A stretch of DNA of 64,000 nt from an uncultured Lentimicrobiaceae bacterium (GTDB lineage: Bacteria; Bacteroidota; Bacteroidia; Bacteroidales; WCHB1-69): contig CAZZHH010000001.1 in assembly GCA_964653595.1 (NCBI GenBank), positions 40,813 through 104,812 of the forward strand. Direction: 5' to 3'. How positions within the stretch are numbered: the first letter of the stretch is position 1; each line of letters begins with the position of its first letter. This document shows, one piece after another, positions 37,876 to 57,675 of the stretch. The position numbers were made by a program, and so were the translations under genes. The notes under the pieces are model-generated. The model searched no databases and was not told the DNA's origin. It saw only the letters and a program-made list of their open reading frames with translations.

Positions 37876-37965
37876 GGAGAGGTGCCGGAGTGGTCGAACG
37901 GGGCAGTCTCGAAAACTGTTGATCTCGCAAGGGGTCCTAGGGTTCGAATCCCTATCTCTCCGCCA
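37876..37965 (+). tRNA. tRNA-Ser (anticodon CGA), encoded CCA end
   Basis: Folded by hand. Acceptor stem GGAGAGG/TCTCTCC (one G-U pair). Anticodon stem-loop gcagt-CTCGAAA-actgt, giving anticodon CGA. Long variable arm, and T-arm tagggTTCGAATcccta. Confidence 0.9.
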
Positions 37966-41444: not shown

Positions 41445-42174
41445 ATATTCTGTATTAAAGGATTTGTATTGTAAAGTTAGGGAAAATAATCATGCAAGTC
41501 ATAATTTTTAAAACGTAATTGAATGTATTAACTAAAACAACTGCGGGTTGTAAAAAGACAAAGCATAGTGAGACAGCCTTGAGCCAGCGTGGGGTGAGGG
41601 TGCAATGAACGTAGTGGTTTGCGACCGAACGAAGGGGCGAGCCACCTGCGAGTGGAGCATAGGGTGCGGAGCAGAGGAAGCACGGAGTGAAGCGTAGCGG
41701 AATGAGTGCGCTGCGACCTATGTAGTCTTCTACACAAGGGGTGGCGGACTTTTTGCTTTTTTATGGGGATTGACCTTGTGAGGGTATTTGCAAAAAGTGT
41801 GACACCACGCAGCCCTTTGCGACCCGCAGGCGAGCACAAAAAATAAACAGCCGTGACCTGAAAGCTGCTGTAGAGAATGTAGGCGGAATGAAATGAAATG
41901 TCTGAGCTTGCGAAGGTTTGAATGTAATGGAGCCGTAATGAACGAAGCTGCTTGCAGGGCAAAAGAGGCTGTGGGTGAGGAAGAAGGAGGAGCTGCAATA
42001 AACATGACAGCCTTGCCGATAGGCAACCGAAGGCGTTGAAGCGCTTGTTTTCTACCTTAGAATAAATAGCACAAAAACAAGGGCTGAAACGGGCTGGCGT
42101 GATTATTTGCCGACGACTGATGACGAACACCGCTTCACCTGCTTTGGCTTTGTGGGTGGATTGCTAAAATTTTA

Positions 42175-42846
42175 CTAATTCATCTTAATTTTATTTTTTT
42201 CTGTCTCAACATCATACCCAATTTGCCAATAATACATGTCAATAATTTTCATTATTGGATAATAATAATTTAAGTTTTTACGGATTAAATCTTGACAAGC
42301 TATGATTTGGTTTAAGTCTAAATTATTGAAAATTGATTCTAAACATTTTTTCCCGAACTTTATATCTTTTAGCTTTAATGTATCTTTAATTCCTGTGATA
42401 AAATATCTGTCAAAAGCTGGAACACACCCCAAAGTGCCAAGCATTATTTTACTAATAAGAGTATCTGTAGGAGTAATATATTTTGGATTTTTTTCTTCCT
42501 TAATGTATGTTATACTATTATAATAATTGGCTAATTCATCTTTTAATTCTAATATCAAATCAATGTCTTTGATAATTATATCGGTTTCCCAATTACACCT
42601 TAGCTTATGGAATTTTTCTTTGAATAGAATATCAACAGCTTTTTGATGAATGAAATGATTTTTTTGTAGCAAACCACATGATCCTCTATACATACCCCAA
42701 CTTGCTAAATAAAATGCTAAATGTAAAGCATGGGATTCGTCAGGAACAGCTGATAAAAATGCTTTATGGCAATTATCCCACGATGAATATCTATGATAGG
42801 GATCTTTTTTTATGTTTAAAATAAATTTTTCAATTGTACTTTTCAT
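42175..42846 (-). CDS. Hypothetical protein, 223 aa, directly downstream of brxL
   Basis: Coherent ORF on the same strand as BREX, 116 nt after the brxL stop. Conserved-looking N-terminal block YHRYSSWDNCHKAF ... LHLAFYLASWGMYRGS. Function unknown. Confidence 0.6.
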   Translation of the reverse strand: MKSTIEKFILNIKKDPYHRYSSWDNCHKAFLSAVPDESHALHLAFYLASWGMYRGSCGLLQKNHFIHQKAVDILFKEKFHKLRCNWETDIIIKDIDLILELKDELANYYNSITYIKEEKNPKYITPTDTLISKIMLGTLGCVPAFDRYFITGIKDTLKLKDIKFGKKCLESIFNNLDLNQIIACQDLIRKNLNYYYPIMKIIDMYYWQIGYDVETEKNKIKMN

Positions 42847-42962: not shown

Positions 42963-45011
42963 TTAGTCGATTAATACTGATTTTTGAAGTAGTAATATGC
43001 TATTGTTATAAAATGGGACATCGGTTTTCCCTAAAATTGTGGTTGGCAGAGTTGCGATTTCTGAGACATTATCCATTGGGACAAGTATTGTCTTAGCTCC
43101 ATTTTCGGAAAGAAGGGTTACTTTATCTGCAAAGTTTAATGCTCTTTCTATAGCCCCACCTATTGATAAATTACCCAAAACGGCCAGTCCTCCTTTGAGG
43201 TTTTTCTTATATAAAGCGGAAATAATTGCAACATAAACAGCACTTCCAATACCCCCACTTATGGATGCTCCCATAAGATTGCTAACTTGAATGTTTAAAT
43301 CGTAACCAGATAAGGAGTGTTGATCATTTAGAATGCTTTTTTCGTTAGCTCTAAGGTAGTTGTATGTATTTTTAATGTTCTCCTTTACAAGTTGAGAGTT
43401 CGTTCCTGTAATGTTGGTTTTACCACTTCCTTTGAGTGCAACAACTTCGATTTTTACTAATGAGTTGTTTTCGCCATCGCTGGTAGCCGTATAACATACG
43501 CCTGGAGCAAGTGGATTTGATTCAATCAATGATGAACCTCTCTCTTCGGGTAATCCTACAAATATTTCCTCTTGCGTTTCTTTGTCGATATATGAAAAGT
43601 TGGTGTCCCAAAACTCCATACCTCCAATTCTTTTAAGTTGTTCTTTCACTCTACGGCGCATTTCCATTGCTATTACCAGATATTCTTTAATATCCTCTTT
43701 GTTGAATTCGCCATTTGGGTGCATAAGTTTAATTAAACCAGAAACAATTTTACGTACTGATTTGGAATCTCTTTGTTTAATATGCGACCCTAACGTGAAG
43801 TATTGATCAATGGCATCGTAGTATGTTGTTTTTCGTTGTGATTTTAGCACTTCGGAAAAGAAATCGGTACTAAATCCAAAGTGGTTTGTGAAATTTTGAG
43901 GACTAAATTTGGTTATTTCCCAACCCGGAAGGAATAAATTAATACGATCTAAAAAAGCCGTATCATAATTTACTTCATCAGACAACGGACTAAATAGATG
44001 TGATGTTTGCAAAACAGTTTCAACGGGTTGATTTATGTTACCGTTTAAAATTATGGAAGCTGAACCTGTTATTTCACCACCCTTTGCCCTAGAAAACGAA
44101 CCCGATTCCATGTAATCTTTCATTAAGGGTATAGCATCTCTATCTTTAAATAATTTATCGGTACTTTCATCAAAGCAAATGGTGTCCCATAATCCAACGG
44201 CACCAACTCTGCCTGTTGTGTTATTTACAAATAATTGGGCTACAGAGCCTTGACCGCCAGAGATTAATATTGCATAAGGTGTAATTTCTTTGTAGATGTA
44301 TGATTTCCCTGAAGAACGAGGGCCTAATTCTACCATATTGAAATTAGCTTCAACCAATGGAATTAAACGACAGAGTAACAAGTTTAATTTTCGAGCATCA
44401 AAACCTTCACTATTAGGCTCATAACCAGCACTTCGGAGTAATAATGTTTTCCACTCCTCTTTGCTAAACTCGTTTCTTTTATTCGCTATTTTTGAATTAT
44501 CAAAACTAGACAATTGTATTGGTTTTATATCACGAACCACAAATGGATACACAACTGAGCCTACTGTTATCATCGGATCGTATTCCATTTCGATTATAGC
44601 CCAAATTCCACCTAATAACAGCTTTTCGTGCGATGTTACTAGATCATCGTTTATATTCGCTTTTTTGATATTACTATTGCTGATGTTTGCCCAATATCTA
44701 TCGCGCTGAGGGTCTAAATCGACTGATATTTTGTCGATAATTTTAAATCGCCCTTTTTCTCTAAGTTTAGATTGTATCAGCGTGCTTTCTTCTGGATTGA
44801 CATAATGATTGCGCAGAACGGATTTAACATTCTCCATACCTTCTTTCAACTTTTCTTCGTCTTCGGTACTGCACGTATTGGCGAGTAAATATTCCAATAC
44901 AAATGCAGGAACATTTGCACCACCCTTTATAATACCTACTAAGTCTTTTTTTACCACATAGCCTCTAAAATGATCTAAGGCTTTTTTATCTAATTCATCT
45001 AGTATTATCAT
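42963..45011 (-). CDS. brxL: BREX system Lon-like protein BrxL
   Basis: 682 aa. N-terminus LDHFRGYVVKKDLVGIIKGGANVPAFVLEYLLA is typical of BrxL. P-loop GPRSSGKSY, and a Lon-protease-like C-terminal domain. Terminal position in the BREX-1 order. Confidence 0.85.
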   Translation of the reverse strand: MIILDELDKKALDHFRGYVVKKDLVGIIKGGANVPAFVLEYLLANTCSTEDEEKLKEGMENVKSVLRNHYVNPEESTLIQSKLREKGRFKIIDKISVDLDPQRDRYWANISNSNIKKANINDDLVTSHEKLLLGGIWAIIEMEYDPMITVGSVVYPFVVRDIKPIQLSSFDNSKIANKRNEFSKEEWKTLLLRSAGYEPNSEGFDARKLNLLLCRLIPLVEANFNMVELGPRSSGKSYIYKEITPYAILISGGQGSVAQLFVNNTTGRVGAVGLWDTICFDESTDKLFKDRDAIPLMKDYMESGSFSRAKGGEITGSASIILNGNINQPVETVLQTSHLFSPLSDEVNYDTAFLDRINLFLPGWEITKFSPQNFTNHFGFSTDFFSEVLKSQRKTTYYDAIDQYFTLGSHIKQRDSKSVRKIVSGLIKLMHPNGEFNKEDIKEYLVIAMEMRRRVKEQLKRIGGMEFWDTNFSYIDKETQEEIFVGLPEERGSSLIESNPLAPGVCYTATSDGENNSLVKIEVVALKGSGKTNITGTNSQLVKENIKNTYNYLRANEKSILNDQHSLSGYDLNIQVSNLMGASISGGIGSAVYVAIISALYKKNLKGGLAVLGNLSIGGAIERALNFADKVTLLSENGAKTILVPMDNVSEIATLPTTILGKTDVPFYNNSILLLQKSVLID

Positions 45012-45022
45012 AATTTATACGT

Positions 45023-47260
45023 TTATAAAAGGCCACCTAAATCTCTGGCAACATTTTGTTTTACAACACCTTTATCTAATTGTTCTTTGGTTAATGCATC
45101 GAGCACTTTAATTTCAATTTCTGAATATGAATCAAATCTGAACTCTTTTTTTATCTCGCTACCTTTAGCAATGGTAATTATATCACTTTCGTTTATTTTT
45201 TGATTGTTGGCAAAAAAGAGAATGATTATTTTACGTTCTGTGGTAAAAAGATCCGATGCATTTGAAGTTGCTTTTATTTTTATCGAGAACAAATCTCCAG
45301 TTATATCTTTCAATTCTTCTTTGTTGGCTATTTCAATTTGTAGTTGATTTTGAGTATTGGTTTTATTTGACCATTTCAAACATGGAATAATTGTTTCTTG
45401 TGGCGATAACCCCCCATGACTGTAGCCATAAACTCCTGTAGATTTGAAAGGGCCTAGTCTTTTTGCAAAATAACAGTAATTGAAATCGCCATACTTTAGC
45501 TCCTGTTCAATCAATAAATCGGAATCTATTTTTTGACTGATTTCGGTTCTGATGTATCGTTCGCTTTTGTTTGTTTTACCATTAAAATCAACCTCTATCT
45601 TATCCGAATCAACAAGAATTCCGGTTAATACAAAGCCATGGTCGGTAAGTAAAAATACATTTTCGTAGCCGTTTTTAAGCAGTTGTTCAATTTTGGAGGC
45701 ATACGTTTCGGACACTTTTTCAAAATGTTTAAGTGCCTTTTGCTGATAGGTCTCTCCCAATTTATCAGGGTCTTTATAACTACAAATTAGATAGTTATAC
45801 TTATCCGTCAACTCGTTTACACTTTCCAAATCAATGAATCCAATTTCTTTGTCTGGATTTTGTTTCAAAATAAAATTTTCTCGGTCTTGCTTTTTTGCCA
45901 TCACTTCACCCGTTTCAACATACAACTGACTCATATTATGTTCGGTTTCGGAGGGGAGGTCTGCAAACAAATATTGATTGTCTTTATCTAAAGGGTACTC
46001 TCTGGAAACTTTTGCAATGATATCTTGAGCAAACTCAAAAGAGACCCCATCACCGACAATAATAGCCGTTTTGGTGATGTTATTATTTAAAATTTCTTGG
46101 ATCTTGCCTGTTTGATTTGATTTGTAGGTATCGATATAACGGAACCATTTTTCGAAGAAAATAATGACGATGTTTTTGTAATAATCCTGTAATGGTTCAA
46201 TTAAGTATTGTTTTTCTAAAAACTCGGTGTAAAGTCCTCTGATAGCCCTATCTAGTTTATAAAAGTGGTTTACATAAAACGAAGCACATTCAGATAACGA
46301 GGCTAACTGATTAATATTTTTGACATCAAATTCTAAAAGTGTTTTTACATGCGACCAAAAAGCAATGTTTAAGTGCTTTATGACCCTGTTGCTAATGCGT
46401 TGGTTTATTTTAGGAATAAAATTGCTAATATATCCTTTATTGGACATGTTTTTACCAAGTTCTTCTAACCATTGTTCATCGATACTTCGGAATGGATGTG
46501 AAGGATGAATGGCGAAAATATCCGACTTTGGTGATAATTTGTATTTCTTGAGATAGGAATCTAAAGAGTTGATATATGTTTTACTGTCTAACCAATTGTT
46601 ATAGACTTCTAACAACACTTTGTTTGGGTTGTTGTTTGCTAACCCATCAAACAGGTAGTTTACCACTTCTGTTGCCAGAGTTGTGGCAGGTTTTGCCACA
46701 TAAGTTTGCCCTATTAATTCATTTATTTTTTTAAAAAAGAGCACTTGTACCATTGCATCGTAGTTTTGGAGATACGATTGGGGACTATCTAAAAATGGCA
46801 ACAACTCTTTTTCAAGGTTAAATATTTCAGACGAACCAGTGATACCCAAATTCATCCAATATGTTTTATCCTTACCAATACTTACTTTTGCAGCTGAAAT
46901 CAATTCGTCTTTCTCTAAATGCAGATTGATGTTGCAATTGCTTAGTGCTTTATCTTTTATGTAATTCTGTAAATACTTGATTTCGAGGCATCCATTAGTT
47001 TCGCAATACTCACGAATAAATTTCAACTGTACTTTTGGGTTGGTGGTGTATATTACCACTTTAGCCCCTATGTTGTAGATTTTTTCAACTTCAAATTTTA
47101 CTCGCAATTCTTCGATTTCGGTAGAAGCAGTATATAACTGGTAATCATCTTTGATTAAATCCAAAAGAAATGCAGCCTCTTTGGATTCATCGATGAATAC
47201 CGCAATTTGCTTTGTTTTTAATATTGCTTCTATGTCTTTTTTAAACCAAGTATCTATCAT
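45023..47260 (-). CDS. pglZ: BREX system alkaline-phosphatase-superfamily protein PglZ
   Basis: 745 aa. PglZ-domain core (IVGDGVSFEF ... VFLLTDHGFVLTG) and a position between pglX and brxL. Confidence 0.85.
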   Translation of the reverse strand: MIDTWFKKDIEAILKTKQIAVFIDESKEAAFLLDLIKDDYQLYTASTEIEELRVKFEVEKIYNIGAKVVIYTTNPKVQLKFIREYCETNGCLEIKYLQNYIKDKALSNCNINLHLEKDELISAAKVSIGKDKTYWMNLGITGSSEIFNLEKELLPFLDSPQSYLQNYDAMVQVLFFKKINELIGQTYVAKPATTLATEVVNYLFDGLANNNPNKVLLEVYNNWLDSKTYINSLDSYLKKYKLSPKSDIFAIHPSHPFRSIDEQWLEELGKNMSNKGYISNFIPKINQRISNRVIKHLNIAFWSHVKTLLEFDVKNINQLASLSECASFYVNHFYKLDRAIRGLYTEFLEKQYLIEPLQDYYKNIVIIFFEKWFRYIDTYKSNQTGKIQEILNNNITKTAIIVGDGVSFEFAQDIIAKVSREYPLDKDNQYLFADLPSETEHNMSQLYVETGEVMAKKQDRENFILKQNPDKEIGFIDLESVNELTDKYNYLICSYKDPDKLGETYQQKALKHFEKVSETYASKIEQLLKNGYENVFLLTDHGFVLTGILVDSDKIEVDFNGKTNKSERYIRTEISQKIDSDLLIEQELKYGDFNYCYFAKRLGPFKSTGVYGYSHGGLSPQETIIPCLKWSNKTNTQNQLQIEIANKEELKDITGDLFSIKIKATSNASDLFTTERKIIILFFANNQKINESDIITIAKGSEIKKEFRFDSYSEIEIKVLDALTKEQLDKGVVKQNVARDLGGLL

Positions 47261-47262
47261 AA

Positions 47263-48303
47263 TTATGGGTGATTAATTGTTGGTAATGGAAATTGCGTTT
47301 CAAATGTCCACTTGAGATCGTTGATGGTATTTTTGAATTCAGTCAGTGTGTCAATAATTTCGTCAAAGGAGGGTGAATCGCCATATATCATTTGTTGTTG
47401 CATTATTTTGTAATCAGCTCTCCATGCTTCTATAAAATCAGCATTAGGAATGGGATTAATTGATTGTGGTTGATGCAAATTGTAATCAACACCACCTACT
47501 TTAGTAAAATGATATCGGTGATTTACTATGGTTTCGTATAGTACTTTATCATTAATGGCATCTAAAGCAAATTGGTTTTTCGACAATTGATAGACGTCGT
47601 ATAAATGTCGGCTTAACCTATTCACTCTTGCTTTTTCAGCAGGTCGGTGAAACTCCTCGTGCAATAGGAATATTTTCTCTAAAAATGTCCTTTCTGGATT
47701 TACCACGGGTATATTTATTGATGCTTGTGCAAAAGCCGCTTGAGGATAATTTTCATCTACCAAAGATAACACGTTTTTGTTTGTAAACGGCTCTCTTAAA
47801 GAACGACAACCAATTTCTACCTGAACCTTTGGCTGGATATACCCTGGTGTTGGAATTACATTTGGATAGTATATTTCAATTACGCTTGGATCTTGATCGC
47901 TGTCGGGTGTTTCTATTAATTTTAAGATTACATCGGAGAATCCTTTTTCGGAAAATTTATGTTGAAGGTCTATTATGAAAATAGTTGAAATATAGGTATA
48001 TGCTGACTTCCGTAATGCTGTGCGTTTGCTTTTTGATAGATTGCCTTCAACCCCAAGGAACTTTCTATCTAGTGCCAAGTCTATGTCTTCCGAAAAACGG
48101 TCGATTAATCCCCACGCTTTGCTTAGCGAAGTGCCACCTTTAAATACTAAGTGGTTTCCAATTTCCATTTCGAAAATCAGCGCCAAGGTTTGCACTACCC
48201 ACCAGTCTTTTTCAACGGCGTAAGCTGCCATACCAGTATCTTCGGCAATTTGAGTATATGCTCTGATTTTGGTTTCTGCGGGCGTGTTATACCATCTATT
48301 CAT
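47263..48303 (-). CDS. abiEii: AbiEii/AbiGii-family nucleotidyltransferase toxin (DUF1814)
   Basis: FKGGTSLSKAWGLIDRFSEDIDL nucleotidyltransferase motif. 346 aa. The start overlaps the upstream antitoxin gene by 8 nt. Confidence 0.8.
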   Translation of the reverse strand: MNRWYNTPAETKIRAYTQIAEDTGMAAYAVEKDWWVVQTLALIFEMEIGNHLVFKGGTSLSKAWGLIDRFSEDIDLALDRKFLGVEGNLSKSKRTALRKSAYTYISTIFIIDLQHKFSEKGFSDVILKLIETPDSDQDPSVIEIYYPNVIPTPGYIQPKVQVEIGCRSLREPFTNKNVLSLVDENYPQAAFAQASINIPVVNPERTFLEKIFLLHEEFHRPAEKARVNRLSRHLYDVYQLSKNQFALDAINDKVLYETIVNHRYHFTKVGGVDYNLHQPQSINPIPNADFIEAWRADYKIMQQQMIYGDSPSFDEIIDTLTEFKNTINDLKWTFETQFPLPTINHP

Positions 48304-48907
48304 GGATGTTGTTTTTAAGTGCTTTGCGCATAATTACTCTAATCCATTCGGGGGCCAGACGAATGTCGTGTTCTAATCTCGATTGTTCTTCTTTTTGAAG
48401 TTGTTTTAGAATTATATTAATTTCTTGTTCAGTTACATTCTCTTTGCCAATTACTTTGAGGGCTTGTATCACCAAACTACTTATTTTGCCTATGGATGAT
48501 AAATTTTTAGGGGCAGATTTTTTGAAAAGAATTTTGCGTTTACCTAAATCTATTTTTCGTGCAGCACCATCGGTAAGATAAACGGCATTCATAGGTACTT
48601 GGGTTGATAAACCAAGTGCATTAAGTGCCATAACTCCTGTGGGAACTATCCGCGCTTTGTCTCTTTTGCCAATGGCTTCGGCAATGGCTTCGGTGCTAGG
48701 TTTTATTAAACCCAAAACAGGGTCGTTTTCTAAACGTGCATAAATACCACGAGCCACCCGAAAAACCTCTCCTTTTTCCACCATTCTCTCTAATGCTTTT
48801 GCTATGGCTTTAGCTGAGCCAAAAGAGAGAAAATCTTCCACAAAAAAGAGCGAACCCCTCTTGGCTTTTTTAATTTTAATAATTACTTTATCATCAATAC
48901 TTTGCAT
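48296..48907 (-). CDS. abiEi: AbiEi-type antitoxin / transcriptional autoregulator (DUF6088-like)
   Basis: 203 aa. N-terminal winged-helix-like segment (SAKAIAKALERMVEKGEVFRVARGIYA). Coupled to the AbiEii gene, with two inverted-repeat operators upstream. Confidence 0.7.
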   Translation of the reverse strand: MQSIDDKVIIKIKKAKRGSLFFVEDFLSFGSAKAIAKALERMVEKGEVFRVARGIYARLENDPVLGLIKPSTEAIAEAIGKRDKARIVPTGVMALNALGLSTQVPMNAVYLTDGAARKIDLGKRKILFKKSAPKNLSSIGKISSLVIQALKVIGKENVTEQEINIILKQLQKEEQSRLEHDIRLAPEWIRVIMRKALKNNIHE

Positions 48908-48926
48908 CTGATATTAGATTAATTTG

Positions 48927-48955
48927 TGTCGCAAATATAGTATAAATTTGCGACA
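48927..48955 (-). promoter_or_regulatory. Candidate AbiEi operator IR1 (10-9-10 inverted repeat)
   Basis: tgtcgcaaat-N9-atttgcgaca with perfect arms, 20 nt upstream of the abiEi start. Confidence 0.6.
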
Positions 48956-48972
48956 TAAATAGGTTTTTATTC

Positions 48973-49001
48973 TGTCACAAATTTAGATAAGATTTGTGAC
49001 A
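48973..49001 (-). promoter_or_regulatory. Candidate AbiEi operator IR2 (10-9-10 inverted repeat)
   Basis: tgtcacaaat-N9-atttgtgaca with perfect arms and the same architecture as IR1. The centres are 46 bp apart. It lies about 10 nt below the pglX stop. Confidence 0.6.
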
Positions 49002-49010
49002 AAACTAGGT

Positions 49011-52000
49011 TTACCAATCGGCATTCAAATATTTCTTCAACTGTCCGGCATTTAATACTTCGTAAGCCAACATGCCTTTGTTTTGCAATGGGGCTATGTT
49101 TTTGCCTACGCCATCGTCGAGTATGGGGTTGTAGCCTTCGGTTAACAGCTCATCTATTTTTGCTTTGAAACGTTCTATCTCTTTGAGTTGCTTGTAGATT
49201 ATGTCTTTTTCGTTTTGTGCTTTGGCAGAAGTGTCGTTGGCTAAATCGGATTGACGATTAACCAATGCCCGTTCGCGCTGTTCGATGTGAACGGAGCGTA
49301 GGCTGAGCAGTTTATCGCGATTCCATTTGTAGATAATGATGTAACAATCGAACCCATGCTCCGCACCACTGGTTAAATGCCATATAAACGGCGTTTTGGG
49401 TAAATACATAAACAAGTTGAGATGATCGGAAAGTGCCTTGAAAAAGTCGTGGTTGATGTATTCGTTAAGTTCTTTGCCCAATAGACTATCAAACGAAGAG
49501 TATTGCGCCATGCTAAACCCTTTTTGGATAAACTTTTCTTCTATTCGTTCTAACAATATTTTTTCGCCAGCATTGGGCACTAATGGAATGATGCCATCTT
49601 CGTCTTCCATTAATATTTCGCGAATCATATCGGCTAAAAACTCCATGGCCAAATCGTTCATGCGTTGTTTTGGTATGATGTTGCTCTCTTTAAACCAATA
49701 CCAAACATTGATCGGATTTACTTTGTGGCGAATGCAAAACTCTTCCAAATCGTTGTTGCTTTGGTATAGCGCAGGAAACTCTTGCACAATGGTTTCGCGC
49801 TCTTGTGCTGTAAATTGGTGTTCGGGTAAGTTTTGGATGTAATCTTTGATATTATCTAACGGAAACTCTGCCACTTCGTTTTGCAAATAGGCTTCTTTTG
49901 CCTCTTTTGCAACGGGCAACCCACCTATGCTTTCGCCTTCTTTGGCTAATACCATGGCTTTGTCGGCAGCAGTTAACTCATATACTTCAAATATTTTTTC
50001 GTTTATGATGGCTTCGTTTAGGAGGACTTGGGTTATTAGATGATTTTCATAGTTAAAATAAAAAATCAGATTACTTTTCCAATCCAAAACAGCTTGATTG
50101 TCAAACATAGTTGAAGTAAAATCTCTCTCATAAATATGATAACTATTAATTTGTTTAGTTATAGCAACATTTCTCGAGGATAAAAGAGTAATGCATTTTT
50201 CTAATTTTTCTTTTGGAATAACAAATGGAACTCTTTGCATATCCCCAACTTGTGCATTTACTGTAGGATTGAGACAATCGATAATATACTGTGTAAACGG
50301 GGAATTGAAAAATGCTAAATTATAAAAATTGTTTTTGAATTTTTTTATTGAAAAAATAGAACTACCGCCAACATCAAAAATACAATCACTTGGTAGAAAT
50401 CTATATGAAGGACCTTTAGAACCTGAGGCAGAATAAGTCACACCCTCTTTAAAATACACATCTTCATTTTGAGGTCTTGATCTCTGCTTTCCATTTTCAT
50501 CATTAAAATTTCTGATTAAATCACCATTATTTTTCCAATTTACTTTTAACCATAAATTACCTTCCCACTTTTTATATGGGCCGCCCTTAGCATATGTTAC
50601 CCATTCATTTTTGGCAATATTCTCATCCTTTGGTTTTAATTCCCACCAAAATCGAAGAAATCTATTATTATCCGCTGTGGCAAGTCCTTGACAATTTCTT
50701 AAAATATCTTTGACCGAATCTCCTTCAAACTTTTCCCTAAACTCATCGCTTATCCAATAAATAAATGGGTATGATTTTATGATTTTAAGTTTGGATTGCG
50801 GTAAAGAATAGTTATTAGAATGATTTACTCCCGTAATTAATTTATCATACGCTTCTACAAAGGCATCATATCTTTTACCTTCGTAAATATGATTGAGTTT
50901 AATGAAAGGGGTTTCCTTTTCTTTTTGAGTTTCCTTTTCTAACACATACATAGCTGCATCAACCCTTGCAGATGGATGGAACATGCCTAAATATCCCCAC
51001 TCTACAAATAAATCAATGTGCGTTTTTTCCAAAATAAATTTTCTAACATCTTCAAATGTTTTGATGTACATAAAAGTTGGTGGATGAACCATTGCCACTT
51101 TACCTTTTTCATTAGTTAGCTCAAAGCATCGTTTTATAAATGTAGCGTATAGGTTGGTGTTAAACTTATATGGTTTTGCATAATTGGTATCGATATATTT
51201 TTTAAGTTCGGCACCAAAATCGGCGCTATCGGTATAAGGCGGGTTGGCACAGGCTATATCGTATTTTTGGGTAATTAGTTTTAAAAAAGTAATGGCATCT
51301 TTGGTTTTGTCGGTTAAAAAAGAGACGCCTTGTTTTTGTGCATATTGGGCTACCGCTGTTTCGAGGTTTATGAAGAAATCCTTTTCAAACTCTTCGTATT
51401 GGGCTATTTCTGCACTCAAAAACAGATCTAGCTCGCCACGTTTTTGCTTGGTATAAAGCTCTTCTACTTGGTGTTTGATTTTTTCTTCAATTTTCACCAA
51501 AGAGCCAAATTTGTGGGCTTGTTGCAGGTCAGTCCAAATTTCCGCTACAATTTTTCGTTGGTTATCGTCAGTTATTCCGGTTTCAAAAATTGGCAACACC
51601 TCCTGATAATCGGGCAAATAGAAATCGGAAGAGACCACATTAAAATGCAAAGCGGTTGTGTTTCTGTTTTTTTGTTTTGCTTTAATCCACAATCCCAACT
51701 GTGCCAATTGAGCGGCACGGTCGTCTAAATCAATACCATGGAGGTTGTTTTCGATAATCAGTTTCGGAATATCATCAATTTCGTAATCGGCATCGTAGTT
51801 TTCTATTTGATCGAGGTAAAGGGCATAAAAGAATGCAAAAGCGTAAAGGAGGAAATTACCCGAACCCGAAGCCGGGTCGATTAGTTTAAGCAAGTGCAAG
51901 GGCTTTGGTTCTCTTACTTTTGTTTTTGGTGCATTCCCTTCGACTGCGCTCAGGGCGGGTGCTATTTTATACAAGCTTTTTATTTCGCTATCGGGGTACA

Positions 52001-52730
52001 TTTCCAAATAGAGTTTTCCCAATGAGTTATGCACCAGAAACTCAACCACCCAACGTGGAGTATATACTTGCGATTGAAGGCTTACTTTGTTGTATTCTGT
52101 TTTGTCGCCACTATCTTTGTGTGCCTGTTTTTTTACATTGTTGTAGCTTTCGTATAGCCAACCCAAAATATCATCGCTCTGCCATATTTTAGACTCAATT
52201 TGGTCGTCTTGTTCTATTTTGTTAAAGGCATCAATAATTTCGTTAAACTCGATAACATAGGGGATGAAGGCATAGGGGTAATTTTTATGAAACAACGGAA
52301 TATCGTCGCCTAACCTATTAAACTCATGCTTAAAATATTCTCTTATCCCTTCCATTTCTTCGTTGCGCATGGCTGGGTTTTGCTCCAACCAAACTTTATG
52401 ACCAAACGATCGTCCACCATGTTCGGCTTGTTTGGTAATAATGGGCGGAAACAGTTGCAGGGCTTCCATTACTTTAATGGCTGCCAAGCGGTTGAAAAGG
52501 GTGAACGTTAATTCATCCAATGCTTTTTCGCGGGCATCGGTATAATTTCCTGTTTCTCCTTCGTGGTTTTTAATCAGTAACGCAATTTTGTTCCGTTTGG
52601 CGTGAAGTTCTATGGGAATTTTATCTGCTTCAGCCATTTTGGTAGCTCCAAAGCCCAATCGAGCAAACTGATTGTTGAAAGCCTTGTATATTAAGATTCG
52701 AATATTATCTACATGTTCGGGTAATTTCAT
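49011..52730 (-). CDS. pglX: BREX-1 N6-adenine DNA methyltransferase PglX
   Basis: 1239 aa. SAM motif I LIDPASGSGNFLLYAF, catalytic motif IV DIACANPPYTDS, and a position after brxC. Confidence 0.9.
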   Translation of the reverse strand: MKLPEHVDNIRILIYKAFNNQFARLGFGATKMAEADKIPIELHAKRNKIALLIKNHEGETGNYTDAREKALDELTFTLFNRLAAIKVMEALQLFPPIITKQAEHGGRSFGHKVWLEQNPAMRNEEMEGIREYFKHEFNRLGDDIPLFHKNYPYAFIPYVIEFNEIIDAFNKIEQDDQIESKIWQSDDILGWLYESYNNVKKQAHKDSGDKTEYNKVSLQSQVYTPRWVVEFLVHNSLGKLYLEMYPDSEIKSLYKIAPALSAVEGNAPKTKVREPKPLHLLKLIDPASGSGNFLLYAFAFFYALYLDQIENYDADYEIDDIPKLIIENNLHGIDLDDRAAQLAQLGLWIKAKQKNRNTTALHFNVVSSDFYLPDYQEVLPIFETGITDDNQRKIVAEIWTDLQQAHKFGSLVKIEEKIKHQVEELYTKQKRGELDLFLSAEIAQYEEFEKDFFINLETAVAQYAQKQGVSFLTDKTKDAITFLKLITQKYDIACANPPYTDSADFGAELKKYIDTNYAKPYKFNTNLYATFIKRCFELTNEKGKVAMVHPPTFMYIKTFEDVRKFILEKTHIDLFVEWGYLGMFHPSARVDAAMYVLEKETQKEKETPFIKLNHIYEGKRYDAFVEAYDKLITGVNHSNNYSLPQSKLKIIKSYPFIYWISDEFREKFEGDSVKDILRNCQGLATADNNRFLRFWWELKPKDENIAKNEWVTYAKGGPYKKWEGNLWLKVNWKNNGDLIRNFNDENGKQRSRPQNEDVYFKEGVTYSASGSKGPSYRFLPSDCIFDVGGSSIFSIKKFKNNFYNLAFFNSPFTQYIIDCLNPTVNAQVGDMQRVPFVIPKEKLEKCITLLSSRNVAITKQINSYHIYERDFTSTMFDNQAVLDWKSNLIFYFNYENHLITQVLLNEAIINEKIFEVYELTAADKAMVLAKEGESIGGLPVAKEAKEAYLQNEVAEFPLDNIKDYIQNLPEHQFTAQERETIVQEFPALYQSNNDLEEFCIRHKVNPINVWYWFKESNIIPKQRMNDLAMEFLADMIREILMEDEDGIIPLVPNAGEKILLERIEEKFIQKGFSMAQYSSFDSLLGKELNEYINHDFFKALSDHLNLFMYLPKTPFIWHLTSGAEHGFDCYIIIYKWNRDKLLSLRSVHIEQRERALVNRQSDLANDTSAKAQNEKDIIYKQLKEIERFKAKIDELLTEGYNPILDDGVGKNIAPLQNKGMLAYEVLNAGQLKKYLNADW

Positions 52731-52741
52731 CTGCTTATTTA

Positions 52742-55700
52742 TTAATTGTTGATAGTCAATTCAATTTCGTCGTCGTTGCTCATTCCAGCAATTCCCTGAA
52801 TTTGAGCAGCTAATAACGCTCTATATTCGGAGGCTTTCATCACTTTTTTAGCAACTGTAAATTGAATTTTCTTAGCCTGTTTAGGTTCTCCTGGAGTTGC
52901 AAGTTTTGGCACCTCTTTAATGAAGTTGCTTTTCAGTATTTGCAATTCCGCATCTTTGTTAGGAGCTAAATCAATATAATTCAAAATATCGGTTAACGAG
53001 TAGTTGCAATCCTGACACGAAACCTGATACTCTAAACGCACATCGTTTATGATTCTTCCAGTACAAATCTCCATTAACGATTTAAGACTTGATGTGTTTT
53101 GGGTATTGAGTTCGGCAGGATAATTTTCAGCCAAATCGGCTTGAGCTGCAACAATATTTGTTTTAATTGTGGTGTAAAGATCAGCCATTTTTTTAGCATT
53201 GGCCTTCATTAAAAGATAATATTCATCTTTTATGGCTTGAGCTGCTTTCTGTATATCGGTATAGTTGTCAATTACATCTTTTGCCATTGCTTTATCGAAG
53301 TTTTCGGCATTAGAAGCAACTATGGCATTGGTGATATTTGCTTTACTTAATTCGCTTTTAACGGCTGTAACAAAGCGATTATAGCCTTTAATTTTATCGA
53401 GGTTCTTTTTGATAAATGCTTCCGCTTTTACAATGGATCTTATAGCCTCTGAATATTCATCTTTACCGGATAAGAAATCTTCGGCTTTTTCGATGTAATT
53501 GGCTTCGGTAGTCTTAGAAATGTATTTTTGCAATATCTCTTTCTGCATCAACACTTTGTTGAATTGTTTATCGAAATCGGGTACCGTATTTTTTAATGCA
53601 ATAACGGTAGTAATAAAGTTGTCGGCAAAATAGGTAATGGCATCGGCTAGTTCGAAATCGGTACTTTCGTATTTGATTTTTAGCTTGGTGTATTTTTCAA
53701 TTTCCAAATCTAAAAGTGTTTTTACAATTTCGCTTTTTTGCGATGCACTCAAGGTTTTTGTTATGGATTTGAAACGGGCAGTTTTATATTTAGCCCCCGA
53801 ATTAAATACTTCTTGCACTGCTTTGTCGCTATACGAGAAGTATTCGGTATCGTTGAATTTAACCACCAATCGGCCAGCACGTAACAAAACGGCTAAAGAT
53901 GTAGATAACGTGCCATAGGAATAGCCCCAAGGCGCCATCGACAATTCATCTTCGAGGCTCTTGCCATCAATATATCGATTGTTTATTTTAGCCGTAATTT
54001 CTTCAATTACCTTTAAACTATCGCCCACAAAATTACCATTGGCATCAAAAAACTTAAACTCATCTCCCGAAAAGTACTTATTGAGTTTATCGGCACTAGT
54101 TTCTTTTAACACTTTATCGCCTATAGACTCTGGCAACTGACTGGTAAGCCGTTTGGTGTAAATATTCTTTATCAGTTTTTTTTGCGTTTCATTGATTGTT
54201 GTTTTGAAATTATCTTTATTTAAAAGATTTTCATCGAACAAATAGATGAGCGAACCATTCTCGTAAGCGGTTTCAATTAGATTGACCAGATCTTTTTCTT
54301 TCTCGTTTTTAATGATCGAAAACTCTCTGATAATTGGCTTCACTTTTTCGTCGTCGGTACTGCTATACTTATCTTCCATATAGCCATAACGTTTCACCTC
54401 TTCGATAAGCTTGTCAATTTCTGCAAATCGTTTGTTATCCGGCACTAATGTTATTTTATCTTTTGCGTATTGCGTGTCTAATTTCAAACTTTCCACAAAG
54501 TCTTGTCTGTCATCGTTCAAGTTAAAAAGACTGTAAACGGTAAGCTTCAGATTTTTGTTATTTGAACTAATAATCTCGTCATCAAGGTCGGTTAACACAT
54601 TGAAATTGTATGAAGCAGTGTTCTCATTGATAACTGAAACCAACCGGAATAAACTGATTTTTTTGAAATAGTTGACCAACTCTCTTTTCTTAACGAACAG
54701 TTCCACCTCAAAATCTTTCATCTCCTCCAATAATTTACCTTCGAGGTTGGATGTTATTTTGTAGTTGTTATTCGAAAACAAAAGGATCTTAGATTCCACC
54801 AATAGCGTTAATGCTTTTTCCACCAATGGTTTGGCATCATAGTAGGTAGCAATATCCGCAATATATGTTTTGGTAATGTTTTCAACCGTTGGCGATGCGA
54901 TTAATTCGGCTTCGTTAATGAAATGTATGGTTTTTAAAAGCATTTCGCCATCCAATGATATATTGTTGTTGGTTAATATACTCTTAGCCGTACTGTATTT
55001 ATTTGCCAAATCGGCTGGTGGCGAAGATTGGGCTTGTGTGCATAAATCGTGGGCGGTAGCAAATTTATGTAATTCATTTTCGATCAATGATTTTTTCAAC
55101 ACATCAAATGTTGTAATTATCATCCCACGAGCTGCAATTTGAGTTGACACTAAAGCATTGGAACTAAACAAAAACTTTTGAAGCAGATCGAATTGGTATT
55201 TGTGAAACGGATAATAGGTTGCAAATTGTTCTGCGGATACTGTTTTGGTGGGAAAGCTAGATTTTAAATTAGTGGCATCGCTTATCAACCCTTCATTTGC
55301 TTTGTAATAGGTGAGTAATTCATTTTGTGCATCTTCGGTTTTCAGCAACAGTCTGTTTTTAATAATCACATCAACCTCTGTAGATTCGATGTGCATTTTT
55401 GTTTTAAAACGGTCGGTTACTTTATTGAGTTGGCTCTTATTAATGTTTGCATTAATGATTACATCGTCTAATTTTTGTTGAGCGATGGCAATGGTCCATA
55501 CTTTTTTGCTAATACTCGAAAGGCTTTCGCTAATAGCCTGCAAATCTGTAAGTTTAAACTTGCCTTGACTTATTGCCTCACTGGCTTCGTCGAAAATAAA
55601 AACTAAGGTTTCATCGGTGTTTTTTGCTAAATATTTTTCAAGTTCATCTTTAAATTTGTTAGCATCGAAGTTTTTAATTGCAAACTCATAAACCTTTTCC

Positions 55701-56350
55701 GTGTCTGCGTATTCAATTTCGGTGTAATCCATTGCCATGTATGCCCTTCTCATGGCTTTAGCAACATCTCTATTTCCCTTTTTTATGTCGTTCCAATCTT
55801 TGCCAAATAATTCCTGCGATTTTTCTTGTAAAAAGGAGTACTTTCCATCAAGAAAAAGATCATATTCCATAAACCCATACTTATCGTTGCGGAATCCTAA
55901 TTTTTTTAGAAAGTTGGCAAAAAGGGTGAAAGCCAAGCCATTATCGGTATTTTGCTTTGCAATATCGAGGAAAATAACTTTGCTTTTTATAGCATCCAAT
56001 TTATTAATGTCGTTCTTAATAAGGCTTTCGTTGTTTACACCGCTGAGACGAGGCATAAATCGGGTTCTTGCCGGAGTGCCATTGATTGTTGGATTTGCGA
56101 TAAGGTATCCCAGTATTTTCCCAAAGTATGATTTTCCTGAGCCATAAAAGCCAGAAAGCCAGACCCCTGTTTCTTTGATGTTGCTAGTGTATTGATTTGC
56201 AAAATTAGAAATATGGTTTCCTAATCCATCGGTAACAATATACGTTTCTAATTCCGATTGTATTTCATTTTCAGATTGATCCTCTAGGTCAATGACATTT
56301 TTAATATCTTCGGAGAGATCAAGTTTTAATATGTCTTTTATTGTATTCAT
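52742..56350 (-). CDS. brxC: BREX system P-loop ATPase BrxC/PglY
   Basis: 1202 aa. Walker A GFYGSGKSYFGKILGYL near the N-terminus, Walker B-like VFIFDEASEA, and a position between brxB and pglX. Confidence 0.85.
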   Translation of the reverse strand: MNTIKDILKLDLSEDIKNVIDLEDQSENEIQSELETYIVTDGLGNHISNFANQYTSNIKETGVWLSGFYGSGKSYFGKILGYLIANPTINGTPARTRFMPRLSGVNNESLIKNDINKLDAIKSKVIFLDIAKQNTDNGLAFTLFANFLKKLGFRNDKYGFMEYDLFLDGKYSFLQEKSQELFGKDWNDIKKGNRDVAKAMRRAYMAMDYTEIEYADTEKVYEFAIKNFDANKFKDELEKYLAKNTDETLVFIFDEASEAISQGKFKLTDLQAISESLSSISKKVWTIAIAQQKLDDVIINANINKSQLNKVTDRFKTKMHIESTEVDVIIKNRLLLKTEDAQNELLTYYKANEGLISDATNLKSSFPTKTVSAEQFATYYPFHKYQFDLLQKFLFSSNALVSTQIAARGMIITTFDVLKKSLIENELHKFATAHDLCTQAQSSPPADLANKYSTAKSILTNNNISLDGEMLLKTIHFINEAELIASPTVENITKTYIADIATYYDAKPLVEKALTLLVESKILLFSNNNYKITSNLEGKLLEEMKDFEVELFVKKRELVNYFKKISLFRLVSVINENTASYNFNVLTDLDDEIISSNNKNLKLTVYSLFNLNDDRQDFVESLKLDTQYAKDKITLVPDNKRFAEIDKLIEEVKRYGYMEDKYSSTDDEKVKPIIREFSIIKNEKEKDLVNLIETAYENGSLIYLFDENLLNKDNFKTTINETQKKLIKNIYTKRLTSQLPESIGDKVLKETSADKLNKYFSGDEFKFFDANGNFVGDSLKVIEEITAKINNRYIDGKSLEDELSMAPWGYSYGTLSTSLAVLLRAGRLVVKFNDTEYFSYSDKAVQEVFNSGAKYKTARFKSITKTLSASQKSEIVKTLLDLEIEKYTKLKIKYESTDFELADAITYFADNFITTVIALKNTVPDFDKQFNKVLMQKEILQKYISKTTEANYIEKAEDFLSGKDEYSEAIRSIVKAEAFIKKNLDKIKGYNRFVTAVKSELSKANITNAIVASNAENFDKAMAKDVIDNYTDIQKAAQAIKDEYYLLMKANAKKMADLYTTIKTNIVAAQADLAENYPAELNTQNTSSLKSLMEICTGRIINDVRLEYQVSCQDCNYSLTDILNYIDLAPNKDAELQILKSNFIKEVPKLATPGEPKQAKKIQFTVAKKVMKASEYRALLAAQIQGIAGMSNDDEIELTINN

Positions 56351-56357
56351 AGTGTTT

Positions 56358-56918
56358 TTATTCTATTACAGTACATCTATATTTAGAAGATTGTTTAGCA
56401 TTGAGAAAATGGTGATGATTGCCACTAATTTCACCTGGATAAAATATCACCAATGGATGATTTAATTCCATAATTACTTTATTTTGGGTGATATTGATAT
56501 TTTCAATCCCTGTGGCATAAAAAATACCGGTTCTAATTAAAACAGGGATTAAACCATTTTTCGAGGTTTCAACAATTCCATTTATCACCTTATCGAAAAG
56601 GTCAATATGAGGGTCTTCATTATCAAAAAAAGCTTTATATGAATTAGGGCTCAAGCTTTGGTAGAACTCGAGAAACTCATCAATGCCATCTTCTGAAACA
56701 TATTCCACAAAAAGCTTACCCACATCAATAAAACTAAACAATGCAGGATCTAATTCACTAGAGGCTTTTTCTAAGTACAAATTTTCCTCATTTGGTGGAT
56801 AAGTGAACAAAATAGTATTACCGCCATTGGCATCACGTCTTAATTGTGTTCGATTTGCAATATCTAATGCCGTCTTTAGGTTATCGAATTTTGCTTTATG
56901 CTCGTCTATATATGCCAT
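56358..56918 (-). CDS. brxB: BREX protein BrxB (DUF1788)
   Basis: 186 aa. ILFTYPPNEE and C-terminal VIFYPGE segments. Second gene of the operon. Confidence 0.7.
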   Translation of the reverse strand: MAYIDEHKAKFDNLKTALDIANRTQLRRDANGGNTILFTYPPNEENLYLEKASSELDPALFSFIDVGKLFVEYVSEDGIDEFLEFYQSLSPNSYKAFFDNEDPHIDLFDKVINGIVETSKNGLIPVLIRTGIFYATGIENINITQNKVIMELNHPLVIFYPGEISGNHHHFLNAKQSSKYRCTVIE

Positions 56919-57675
56919 TGATTATGTTGTTTGTGTTAAATGAAGCCTCTACCTTGAGATCTGTACCGGTATAACTCATTTTAATCCAGTCCTTTTTCCC
57001 AATACTTTTTAACCTATCCAAAATATTCTCCTTAGTAATAAATGAGAAAGCAATCAGTTCATCCTCTAACAAGTTCGGTTTCTTGTTATCCAATAAGTTT
57101 ATCAGGTGAATAAATATTGCTAACAGCTCGTCCGTAATTTTAAGATGACAGAACCTCTTTTTTAAATTTCCTTCAAGCAAATGTAGCTTTTTAAGGGTTG
57201 TTAGATATTTTGAAGCAATGGTGTCAATTGTAATTTCAGACCATTTTCCCTTTAATTCTGGGTTTCTATCAATTAAATCTTTGATGTAGGCAATCACGAC
57301 CTCTTTGGGTAGTTCTGCCCTGCCTTGAAAATAGTATTTTAAAAAAAGGTCACGATTGAGTTCGAAAAAAAGTTTATTATTGAAACTAAATAGCCAAAAC
57401 AGAAGAATTGCTTGCGCTGATTCATCGTCACTATACTGTTTTATCACCAGAGAAGCCAGTTCGTTGACATGATTTTCCTTATTGATAAAAGCAGAATTTA
57501 ATGCAGTCAGAAACCGTTTGCGGGATTTTTCTGTTCTAAAATCAAATTGATTATTCGTAACTAAAATTGATTGCAACTCAACCTGATCGGTCAATAATAA
57601 TGGCAATGCCAGATAAATTAAATGATAATCAGGAATACTGCCAATTATATTTATATCGGTATTGTAATTTGTCAT
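56896..57675 (-). CDS. brxA: BREX protein BrxA (DUF1819)
   Basis: 259 aa and the first gene of the operon; it overlaps brxB by 23 nt. The assignment rests mainly on position and size. Confidence 0.65.
   Translation of the reverse strand: MTNYNTDINIIGSIPDYHLIYLALPLLLTDQVELQSILVTNNQFDFRTEKSRKRFLTALNSAFINKENHVNELASLVIKQYSDDESAQAILLFWLFSFNNKLFFELNRDLFLKYYFQGRAELPKEVVIAYIKDLIDRNPELKGKWSEITIDTIASKYLTTLKKLHLLEGNLKKRFCHLKITDELLAIFIHLINLLDNKKPNLLEDELIAFSFITKENILDRLKSIGKKDWIKMSYTGTDLKVEASFNTNNIINGIYRRA

Follow-up and report, generated by a model that had tools for sequence, protein, structure and literature searches.

The 64-kb stretch of contig CAZZHH010000001.1 analysed here (the window) carries an AbiE toxin-antitoxin (TA) pair nested between pglX and pglZ of a type 1 bacteriophage exclusion (BREX) operon. 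We consider it highly probable that this insert is an intact, self-contained TA/abortive-infection cassette, comprising a promoter, one or more operators, the antitoxin gene abiEi and the toxin gene abiEii, that it occupies the pglX-pglZ hotspot of a Flavobacterium type 1 BREX operon, and that it is controlled by AbiEi through the mechanism proposed below. This reading is carried by the gene identities, the fold of the antitoxin, the anatomy of the repeats upstream of abiEi, the conservation and covariation of the candidate operator, its overlap with a promoter motif, and synteny; from these we infer DNA binding, repression, toxicity and the shares of the individual promoters. All features of the locus lie on the minus strand, and those of the cassette are the following:

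49013-49011, minus strand: pglX stop codon (TAA)
49010-48908: pglX-abiEi intergenic gap, 103 bp
48973..49001, unstranded: IR-A, distal accessory palindrome, TGTCACAAAT-CTTATCTAA-ATTTGTGACA, a perfect 10-9-10 inverted repeat (IR), centre 48987
48927..48955, unstranded: IR-B, proximal conserved candidate operator, TGTCGCAAAT-TTATACTAT-ATTTGCGACA, a perfect 10-9-10 inverted repeat, centre 48941
48932..48939, minus strand: predicted abiE sigma-A -7 box, TATATTTG, in the IR-B spacer and right arm (TAnnTTTG scan)
48296..48907, minus strand: abiEi, antitoxin and predicted autorepressor, 203 aa (DUF6088, 2.4e-70; PADLOC AbiEi, 7.7e-71)
47263..48303, minus strand: abiEii, DUF1814 nucleotidyltransferase toxin, 346 aa (PF08843, 4.7e-40; PADLOC AbiEii, 1.8e-103)
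47265-47263, minus strand: abiEii stop codon, followed by TT (2 nt) and then the pglZ ATG at 47260

The coordinates and the Pfam and PADLOC identities bear out the layout described in a first-pass annotation of this DNA, which had placed an AbiE pair between pglX and pglZ, with an 8-nt overlap of the abiEi and abiEii reading frames (ATGAATAG) and an abiEii stop codon only 2 nt from the pglZ start. As is typical of bicistronic AbiE loci, the antitoxin gene comes first and overlaps the toxin gene, and the same 8-nt overlap is common to L001, L049 and metagenome loci. Both reading frames are intact. The toxin is a pol-beta-type nucleotidyltransferase (DUF1814/PF08843/COG2253) with motif I (hG[GS]), motif II (DxD) and the motif IV Asp in place. 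In an alignment with the S. agalactiae AbiEii chain 9hlo_B, its catalytic residues G56-G57 (motif I), R69, D73/D75 (motif II) and D236 (motif IV) are conserved and correspond to G49-G50, R63, D67/D69 and D192, and S71 aligns to the phospho-acceptor T65 (residue roles from PMC3985639 and bioRxiv 10.64898/2026.01.19.700257). A 2026 bioRxiv preprint moves AbiE from type IV to type VII, with antitoxin-induced toxin autophosphorylation, a mechanism that Ser71 fits.

The antitoxin is a DUF6088 protein with a borderline AbiEi_4 score (25.2 bits versus a cutoff of 25). Since sequence and profile searches of the PDB with AbiEi returned no significant match, its connection to known AbiEi structures is one of fold comparison. 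An AlphaFold model built from 37 close homologues (77-96% identity) was unusable, with a predicted local distance difference test score (pLDDT) of 52; the AlphaFold2 model was rebuilt on a 140-sequence alignment obtained after a profile search and reached a pLDDT of 89.4 and a predicted template modelling score of 0.78. In this model an N-terminal winged helix (H4-14, E20-22, H23-29, H32-44, E48-52, E55-58) is followed by a C-terminal alpha/beta domain, so that the predicted topology (H-S-H-H-S-S plus alpha/beta domain) is that of a two-domain AbiEi with a winged helix-turn-helix (wHTH) and a C-terminal domain (CTD); residues 32-44 form the predicted recognition helix. A Foldseek search of the PDB with the model placed S. 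agalactiae AbiEi (6Y8Q) at the top (E 3.5e-4, TM 0.50) and Rv2827c (1ZEL) at rank 4. The PADLOC, Pfam (PF08843 and DUF6088), motif and fold evidence therefore upholds the identities first assigned to the two genes: the pair is a genuine AbiE system whose antitoxin belongs to a sequence-divergent, uncharacterised subfamily.

The 103-bp gap upstream of abiEi indeed holds the two perfect 10-9-10 palindromes, with centres 46 bp apart, that had been reported there. IR-A begins 9 nt past the pglX stop, at the pglX/cassette junction, and IR-B begins 48 nt before the abiEi ATG; the two differ by a compensated transition in each arm (A/T in IR-A, G/C in IR-B). A 29-nt degenerate pattern with at most 3 mismatches matched only IR-A and IR-B in the window, compared with 0.03 matches expected from shuffled sequence, and 0 of 100 shuffles reached two. 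Chance does not account for the repeats, because shuffles rarely match the pattern. The half-site TGTCRCAAA occurs four times in the window, each time within the pglX-abiEi gap, and the pattern scan of the 64 kb found no operator copy elsewhere, for example none at brxA.

To place IR-A and IR-B in a wider context we compared 80 genomic loci with AbiEi homologues of 38-88% identity, nearly all from Bacteroidota, 79 of which had a usable upstream region. The palindrome TGTC-NN-AAA-N11-TTT-NN-GACA is present in 72 of the 79 and nearly always starts at -48 to -53 from the abiEi ATG, a distance that is fixed in non-BREX contexts too. Its outer TGT/ACA and inner AAA/TTT are essentially invariant across homologues, and its central bases differ by clade with both arms in step (GC/GC, AC/GT, AG/CT, CG/CG, CC/GG, GT/AC, GCC/GGC). 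In a strict operator scan the density was 4.4 sites per kb over the 200 nt preceding abiEi and 0.006 per kb over 1.1 Mb of flanks, an enrichment of ~700-fold; most of the seven 'background' matches are themselves other abiE operators, including that of a second abiE copy in L034. In relatives with at least 74% identity the arms TGTCGCAAA/TTTGCGACA are the same or one base off, and the spacers and flanks drift. On account of the conserved position, invariant ends, covarying arms and upstream enrichment, the IR-B class is the predicted family-wide operator of DUF6088 AbiEi.

The AbiEi residues that track operator class best are 36, 32, 33 and 43 (plus 15), which lie in or beside helix 32-44. Across homologues these recognition-helix residues correlate with the central bases of the operator (for example R36 with GT, H36 with CT, K36 with GG, T36 and D32 with CG/CA, N36 and Q32 with AC), a correlation that is suggestive only, being uncorrected for phylogeny. 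At L034 (2167-6128), two abiE systems lie within ~3 kb of each other, each with its own palindrome pair, one with central dinucleotides of the AC type and the other of the CG type, an arrangement consistent with insulated operator specificities.

IR-A behaves differently in the comparison. A second or third palindrome occurs in only 12-16 of the ~80 promoters, at a spacing of 33-103 bp (mostly 39-60) and often with slightly different central bases. Loci of the L085 type carry TGTAACAAA-N11-TTTGTTACA at -92; L096 and L097 have three sites (at -136, -92 and -48); L004 has sites at -137 and -48 plus a shorter TAACAAA-N11-TTTGTTA repeat at -91; and L001, L049, L114 and L116 have a single palindrome only. 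On the contigs that encode an identical AbiEi (n=4), three keep IR-A and IR-B unchanged and the fourth (L083) has one mismatch in an IR-A arm. Because it is not conserved in the closest species-level relatives, IR-A is best read from these alignments as a variable accessory site. The earlier proposal that both palindromes are strong operator candidates thus stands for IR-B, with its conservation in 72 of 79 regions, its covarying arms and its overlap with a -7 box (see below), but is reduced to an accessory role for IR-A.

In the transcription start site (TSS) map of F. psychrophilum the sigma-A -7 box TAnnTTTG spans -12 to -5 (PMC9723704), and we adopted a scan for this motif because a sigma-70 scan is uninformative for Bacteroidota. 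TAnnTTTG occurs 14 times on the minus strand in 19 kb, and three of these occurrences lie within the 103-bp gap: TATATTTG in IR-B, TAAATTTG inside IR-A (48985-48978) and TAGTTTTG at 49007-49000, which overlaps the left arm of IR-A and is preceded 18 nt upstream by a candidate -33 TTTG (TTTG-N18-TAGTTTTG) inside the pglX 3' end. With its start 32 nt ahead of the abiEi ATG, the IR-B box is placed much like the brxA -7 box (TAAATTTG, 57710-57703), which is 35 nt upstream of the brxA ATG, and relatives retain the 'TA' in the spacer (tata, taca, tatt). From the position of the motif, the abiE TSS is predicted near 48927, the last base of IR-B, with a 5' untranslated region of ~20 nt, so that IR-B would cover about -29 to +1 of the promoter. 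This placement has the geometry expected of repression by occlusion.

We propose that AbiEi monomers bind the IR-B half-sites TGTCGCAAA and TTTGCGACA (~20 bp between centres) via the N-terminal winged helix. Bound there, AbiEi would occlude RNA polymerase at TATATTTG and at the start near 48927, because IR-B covers both the -7 box and the predicted start, and would thereby repress abiE, in keeping with the autorepression via promoter inverted repeats described for AbiEi proteins (PMC3985639, PMC7319586). IR-A, 46 bp upstream, may serve as an accessory site, probably of lower affinity, or as a duplicated promoter-operator, in which case IR-A and IR-B would make up a four-half-site promoter like that of Rv2827c. 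Judged from its homology to S. agalactiae AbiEii and MenT toxins, AbiEii would block translation through tRNA modification, and AbiEi would keep it inactive, probably by inducing phosphorylation of S71. The genes pglZ-brxL would then be the distal part of any mRNA that crosses abiE, whether it arises by read-through from brxA or from AbiEi-controlled starts.

Two studied systems serve as points of reference for this mechanism. S. agalactiae AbiEi binds two 23-bp inverted repeats 3 bp apart, that is, one palindrome, with positive cooperativity, and the TSS lies 26 nt before the ATG (PMC3985639, PMC7319586). Rv2827c binds two such repeat pairs of unequal affinity with negative cooperativity (PMC7319586). 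By analogy, one palindrome here would equal one IR1-IR2 pair, and the two-palindrome gap resembles the Rv2827c promoter rather than the S. agalactiae one, because IR-A and IR-B differ by a compensated transition per arm. The suggestion that AbiEi binds the paired repeats cooperatively therefore agrees with the inverted-repeat paradigm, but not in the form first given: a single palindrome is already a pair, and two of them recall the negatively cooperative case.

As in S. agalactiae AbiEi-AbiEii (Dy et al. 2014, PMC3985639; Hampton et al. 2018; 6Y8Q), the antitoxin gene comes first and the genes overlap (by 4 nt there, 8 nt here), the toxin is a DUF1814/PF08843 nucleotidyltransferase with the same motif I/II/IV residues, the two-domain wHTH-plus-CTD antitoxin is the best fold match, and a palindrome lies over the promoter near the start codon (TSS mapped at 26 nt there, predicted at ~20 nt here). 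In contrast to S. agalactiae AbiEi, the window protein is of the DUF6088 family, with no significant sequence match to 6Y8Q and 12-13% structural identity; the half-sites are 9-10 bp long and 9-11 bp apart instead of 23-bp repeats 3 bp apart; and there are two palindromes, a Bacteroidetes-type promoter and a BREX context. The M. tuberculosis pair Rv2827c-Rv2826c/MenAT (Beck et al. 2020, PMC7319586) shares with the window two sets of inverted repeats making four half-sites of slightly different sequence, from which graded affinities are therefore predicted, as well as an AbiEi-like antitoxin (the 1ZEL fold match) and a DUF1814 nucleotidyltransferase with an equivalent Ser/Thr phospho-acceptor (S71 here). 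It differs in its repeat geometry (23-13-23 and a 4-bp gap, against 10-9-10 and a 17-bp gap in the window) and in the larger CTD of Rv2827c.

Several observations weigh against the reading of the insert as an AbiEi-controlled cassette of this kind. The match between AbiEi and 6Y8Q is moderate (TM 0.50, 12-13% identity in the structural alignment), and DUF6088 is an uncharacterised family that two literature matches mention only in passing. The gap showed no promoter in a sigma-70 promoter/terminator scan covering 47000-49400, an outcome to be expected in Bacteroidota; the IR-B promoter has no canonical -33 TTTG at the right spacing; and in homologues with TTTC or TTTA arms the -7 box matches at only 7 of 8 positions. 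Neither the closest named species (L001, L049) nor most homologues have IR-A, which may contribute little. The residue-operator correlation is uncorrected for phylogeny, and covariation of the palindrome arms is also compatible with an RNA or DNA hairpin. Finally, neighbour-joining (NJ) trees, built without bootstraps, mix BREX-embedded and free-standing AbiE, which speaks against an obligate functional tie to BREX.

The host operon is a complete type 1 BREX locus by Pfam and PADLOC, with the six core genes in the order brxA-brxB-brxC-pglX ... pglZ-brxL on one strand (57675-42963):

56896..57675, minus strand: brxA (PF08849, 4.3e-08; PADLOC BrxA, 5.7e-53)
56358..56918, minus strand: brxB (PADLOC BrxB, 3.8e-40)
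52742..56350, minus strand: brxC (PADLOC BrxC, 1397 bits, full length)
49011..52730, minus strand: pglX methyltransferase (Eco57I, 4e-25; MmeI_Mtase, 7e-11)
45023..47260, minus strand: pglZ (PADLOC PglZ, 3.3e-228; junction compared with empty-slot loci)
42963..45011, minus strand: brxL, Lon-like protease (BrxL_ATPase, 2.2e-127; BrxL_N, 1.7e-48; Lon_C, 6.5e-15)

AbiE nesting between pglX and pglZ is already on record, because Went et al. 2024 tabulate it there: of ~9,000 genomes in which pglZ and pglX are co-localised, ~7,000 have one or more genes in between (PMC11341690), and AbiE makes up 0.32% of the 1,902 defence genes found in this position (PMC11341690, Supplementary Fig. 1). Our own survey of the slot, which the first-pass annotation had put forward as a check, covered 15 metagenomic PglZ relatives of 49-75% identity, 14 of them informative. 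The slot is empty in five (L105, L107, L113, L115, L119), holds AbiE directly upstream of pglZ in four (L109, L114, L116, L118), as in the window, and holds other genes in five. Slot contents other than AbiE include GmrSD (L106, L117 and also L001 and L049), a Fic-like gene (L110), an OLD-like gene with Schlafen (L112) and DUF3307, so that non-BREX defence genes occupy the slot and vary among related loci, as expected of a hotspot. In the empty-slot relatives 4-18 nt separate the pglX stop from the pglZ ATG, and in the window the ancestral spacer CCATAATT survives immediately ahead of pglZ and contains the abiEii stop. Given these short junctions and the retained spacer, the ancestral state is a single operon into whose pglX-pglZ spacer the cassette was inserted.

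For the AbiEi proteins P0041 (154 index blocks) and P0023 (105), both 85-86% identical to that of the window, nearly all contexts listed show the gene order pglX-[variable gene]-abiEi-abiEii-pglZ-brxL (the L096 contig ends before pglX). The abiEi-abiEii-pglZ-brxL block thus recurs, and the gene between pglX and abiEi varies: the window and L118 have none, L001 and L049 have GmrSD/BrxU, and other loci have an unknown protein of 369 or 176 aa there. An identical AbiEi protein is encoded on four independent metagenome contigs. An obligate association of this AbiE clade with BREX was rejected, as relatives at 78-80% identity are free-standing and the trees are interleaved; for the same reasons the AbiE cassette is mobile and no obligate part of BREX.

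A few further observations concern the cassette and its slot. The window AbiEi is 84-88% identical to the L001/L085/L093 clade but its AbiEii only 67-69%, and AbiEii groups with the free-standing L005/L006 in the NJ tree; either faster toxin evolution or recombination inside the cassette could explain the mismatch. In the free-standing loci L102-L104, AbiEii is shortened to 82 aa (gene 8001-8853 in L102) with AbiEi and a perfect operator intact, so that the antitoxin/repressor appears to have outlived its toxin. In L001 (5879-7966, Flavobacterium caseinilyticum) and L049 (5879-7966, F. fructosi), pglX and abiEi are separated by a GmrSD (BrxU-like) type IV restriction gene whose stop codon falls inside the abiE operator spacer, and two accessory systems therefore share one slot. 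Upstream of GmrSD in L049 (86-5673) are an OLD/SMC-like ATPase with a PHP domain, an HD-CE fragment and an IS21-type istA/istB pair; pglX was undetectable within 8 kb, and this BREX copy may have been disrupted by insertion of the insertion sequence. The proteins of 369 aa (L085, 6648-7757) and 176 aa (L097, 7265-7795), which are conserved, lack a Pfam match and on many metagenome contigs are encoded in the interval from pglX to the abiE promoter, are candidates for uncharacterised defence or accessory genes.

As regards how pglZ-brxL is expressed, abiEii and pglZ are 2 nt apart in the window and 24-37 nt apart in relatives. Terminator prediction (47000-49400) found none between pglX and abiEi and none after abiEii. 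Nor did the abiEii 3' end yield an internal promoter for pglZ, the nearest TAnnTTTG being 508 nt upstream of pglZ. The short spacer, the lack of a -7 box near pglZ and the lack of a terminator imply that pglZ-brxL is co-transcribed with abiE, by brxA read-through, from the AbiEi-controlled promoter, or, most likely, both. That the abiE promoter supplies a substantial share of this expression has roughly even odds, and read-through from the brxA promoter across abiE is equally likely because no terminator separates pglX from abiE. Precedents for type 1 BREX transcripts go both ways: B. cereus has two operons, with pglZ-brxL separate, and Acinetobacter one mRNA. Within these bounds, the possible coupling of pglZ-brxL expression to TA autoregulation that the first-pass annotation suggested is a reasonable idea.

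The strongest alternative, to which we assign only slightly less than an even chance, grants that AbiE is a functional, independent cassette and treats it as a passive hitchhiker: pglZ-brxL would be expressed essentially by brxA read-through, like the original undivided operon, the abiE promoter would be negligible and BREX would be untied from TA autoregulation. The empty-slot junctions of 4-18 nt, which mark one operon, the lack of a terminator-like site between pglX and abiEi (the palindrome hairpins have no U-tract), the single Acinetobacter mRNA, the interleaving of embedded and free-standing AbiE in the trees, and the lack of a further operator copy in the window, for example at brxA, all agree with it. 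It fits less well with the preservation of the abiEi-abiEii-pglZ-brxL block while the gene upstream of the abiE promoter varies; moreover, AbiEi on two palindromes could roadblock read-through, and the separate pglZ-brxL operon of B. cereus is a precedent for an internal promoter here.

It is unlikely, in our estimate, that the palindromes act mainly as nucleic-acid hairpins, be it as elements of mRNA stability, processing or attenuation, as DNA cruciforms, or as recombination sites at the cassette boundary. A 141-nt RNA does fold as two hairpins of 10-14 bp (-33.2 kcal/mol, z = -4.3), the covariation of the arms maintains pairing, and IR-A sits exactly at the pglX/cassette junction. However, the outer TGT/ACA and inner AAA/TTT are fixed in sequence and not just in pairing, with 2-3 central positions varying; the U-G wobble of imperfect sites falls on different strands in different clades, which points to no consistent RNA strand; the spacer keeps a promoter-like TA, and a start at the 3' edge of IR-B would leave IR-B outside the cassette's own mRNA; and the distance to the abiEi ATG is fixed in non-BREX contexts. 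An Rfam scan of 46800-49300 matched no family, and the repeats were rejected as intrinsic terminators since they lack a U-tract.

Comparably improbable is that AbiE is an integrated accessory of BREX, in which AbiEi would regulate pglZ-brxL, or in which cross-talk (degradation of AbiEi by BrxL, reactivation of phospho-AbiEii by the phosphatase-fold PglZ) would make AbiE fire upon BREX inhibition. AbiEi proteins with 53-88% identity to that of the window repeatedly share the synteny with pglZ-brxL, PARIS in Salmonella BREX is a precedent for an embedded back-up, a Ser/Thr phosphatase strips the inhibitory phosphate from AbiEii in vitro, and Lon has been proposed as the trigger of the related TA system SanaTA. 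On the other hand, there is no direct link between BREX and AbiE proteins, close AbiE relatives function outside BREX, the slot takes many unrelated systems (PMC11341690), and embedded PARIS is likewise without demonstrated synergy so far. We are just as doubtful of a bolder form, in which AbiE has been recruited to control the BREX effector half: pglZ-brxL would be expressed mainly from AbiEi-repressed promoter(s), AbiEi bound to IR-A and IR-B would block read-through, and phage-induced loss of labile AbiEi would de-repress pglZ-brxL and free AbiEii, possibly with BrxL/PglZ cross-talk. The conserved abiEi-abiEii-pglZ-brxL block with its variable upstream gene is compatible with such co-option.

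Read as a self-contained cassette, the insert is comparable to BrxU in E. fergusonii pEFER and PARIS in Salmonella D23580, which occupy the same pglX-pglZ slot of type 1 BREX (Went et al. 2024, PMC11341690), and relatives of the window locus carry GmrSD/BrxU there, sometimes beside AbiE. Unlike in that survey, where AbiE is rare, it is frequent in this Flavobacterium lineage (4 of 14 informative PglZ relatives), and in the window it brings a predicted autoregulated promoter directly upstream of pglZ-brxL. The BrxR/WYL-family BREX regulators (PMC9122601; bioRxiv 10.1101/2021.12.19.473356) offer a further parallel, being wHTH repressors that act at a pseudo-palindrome overlapping a promoter in a BREX locus; BrxR, however, is encoded upstream of brxA and controls the whole operon, whereas AbiEi is an antitoxin with an operator only at its own promoter and none at brxA here.

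The DUF6088 branch of AbiEi thereby gains a concrete, testable candidate operator, TGTC-NN-AAA-N11-TTT-NN-GACA over a Bacteroidetes -7 box, and the covariation of its central bases with recognition-helix residues would offer a ready system for studies of repressor-operator specificity. One BREX lineage has a predicted autoregulated TA promoter directly upstream of pglZ-brxL. The dosage of pglZ-brxL relative to pglX is reported to bear on toxicity, and if the abiE promoter contributes substantially, expression of the BREX effectors would be tied to TA status. The locus is one more documented case of defence nesting in the BREX hotspot and brings no new principle; what it adds is the family-wide definition of a candidate DUF6088 AbiEi operator and the recurrent, lineage-specific abiE-pglZ-brxL block.

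A tRNA-Ser (CGA) gene at 37876-37965 is directly followed by a tyrosine integrase (38197-39417; Arm-DNA-bind_5, Phage_int_SAM_5, Phage_integrase), DUF6266 and DUF6943 genes, the BREX locus and a DUF3987/BT4734-N/PriCT primase-like gene (57778-60048), and the whole looks like an integrative element at tRNA-Ser that carries BREX and AbiE. A search of 37800-64000 for an att direct repeat found none, and the far end of the island therefore probably lies beyond 64000. Just downstream of brxL (41528-42846), two open reading frames of 223 and 200 aa without a Pfam match, present at the same position on the metagenome contig L081, could be further cargo of the island.

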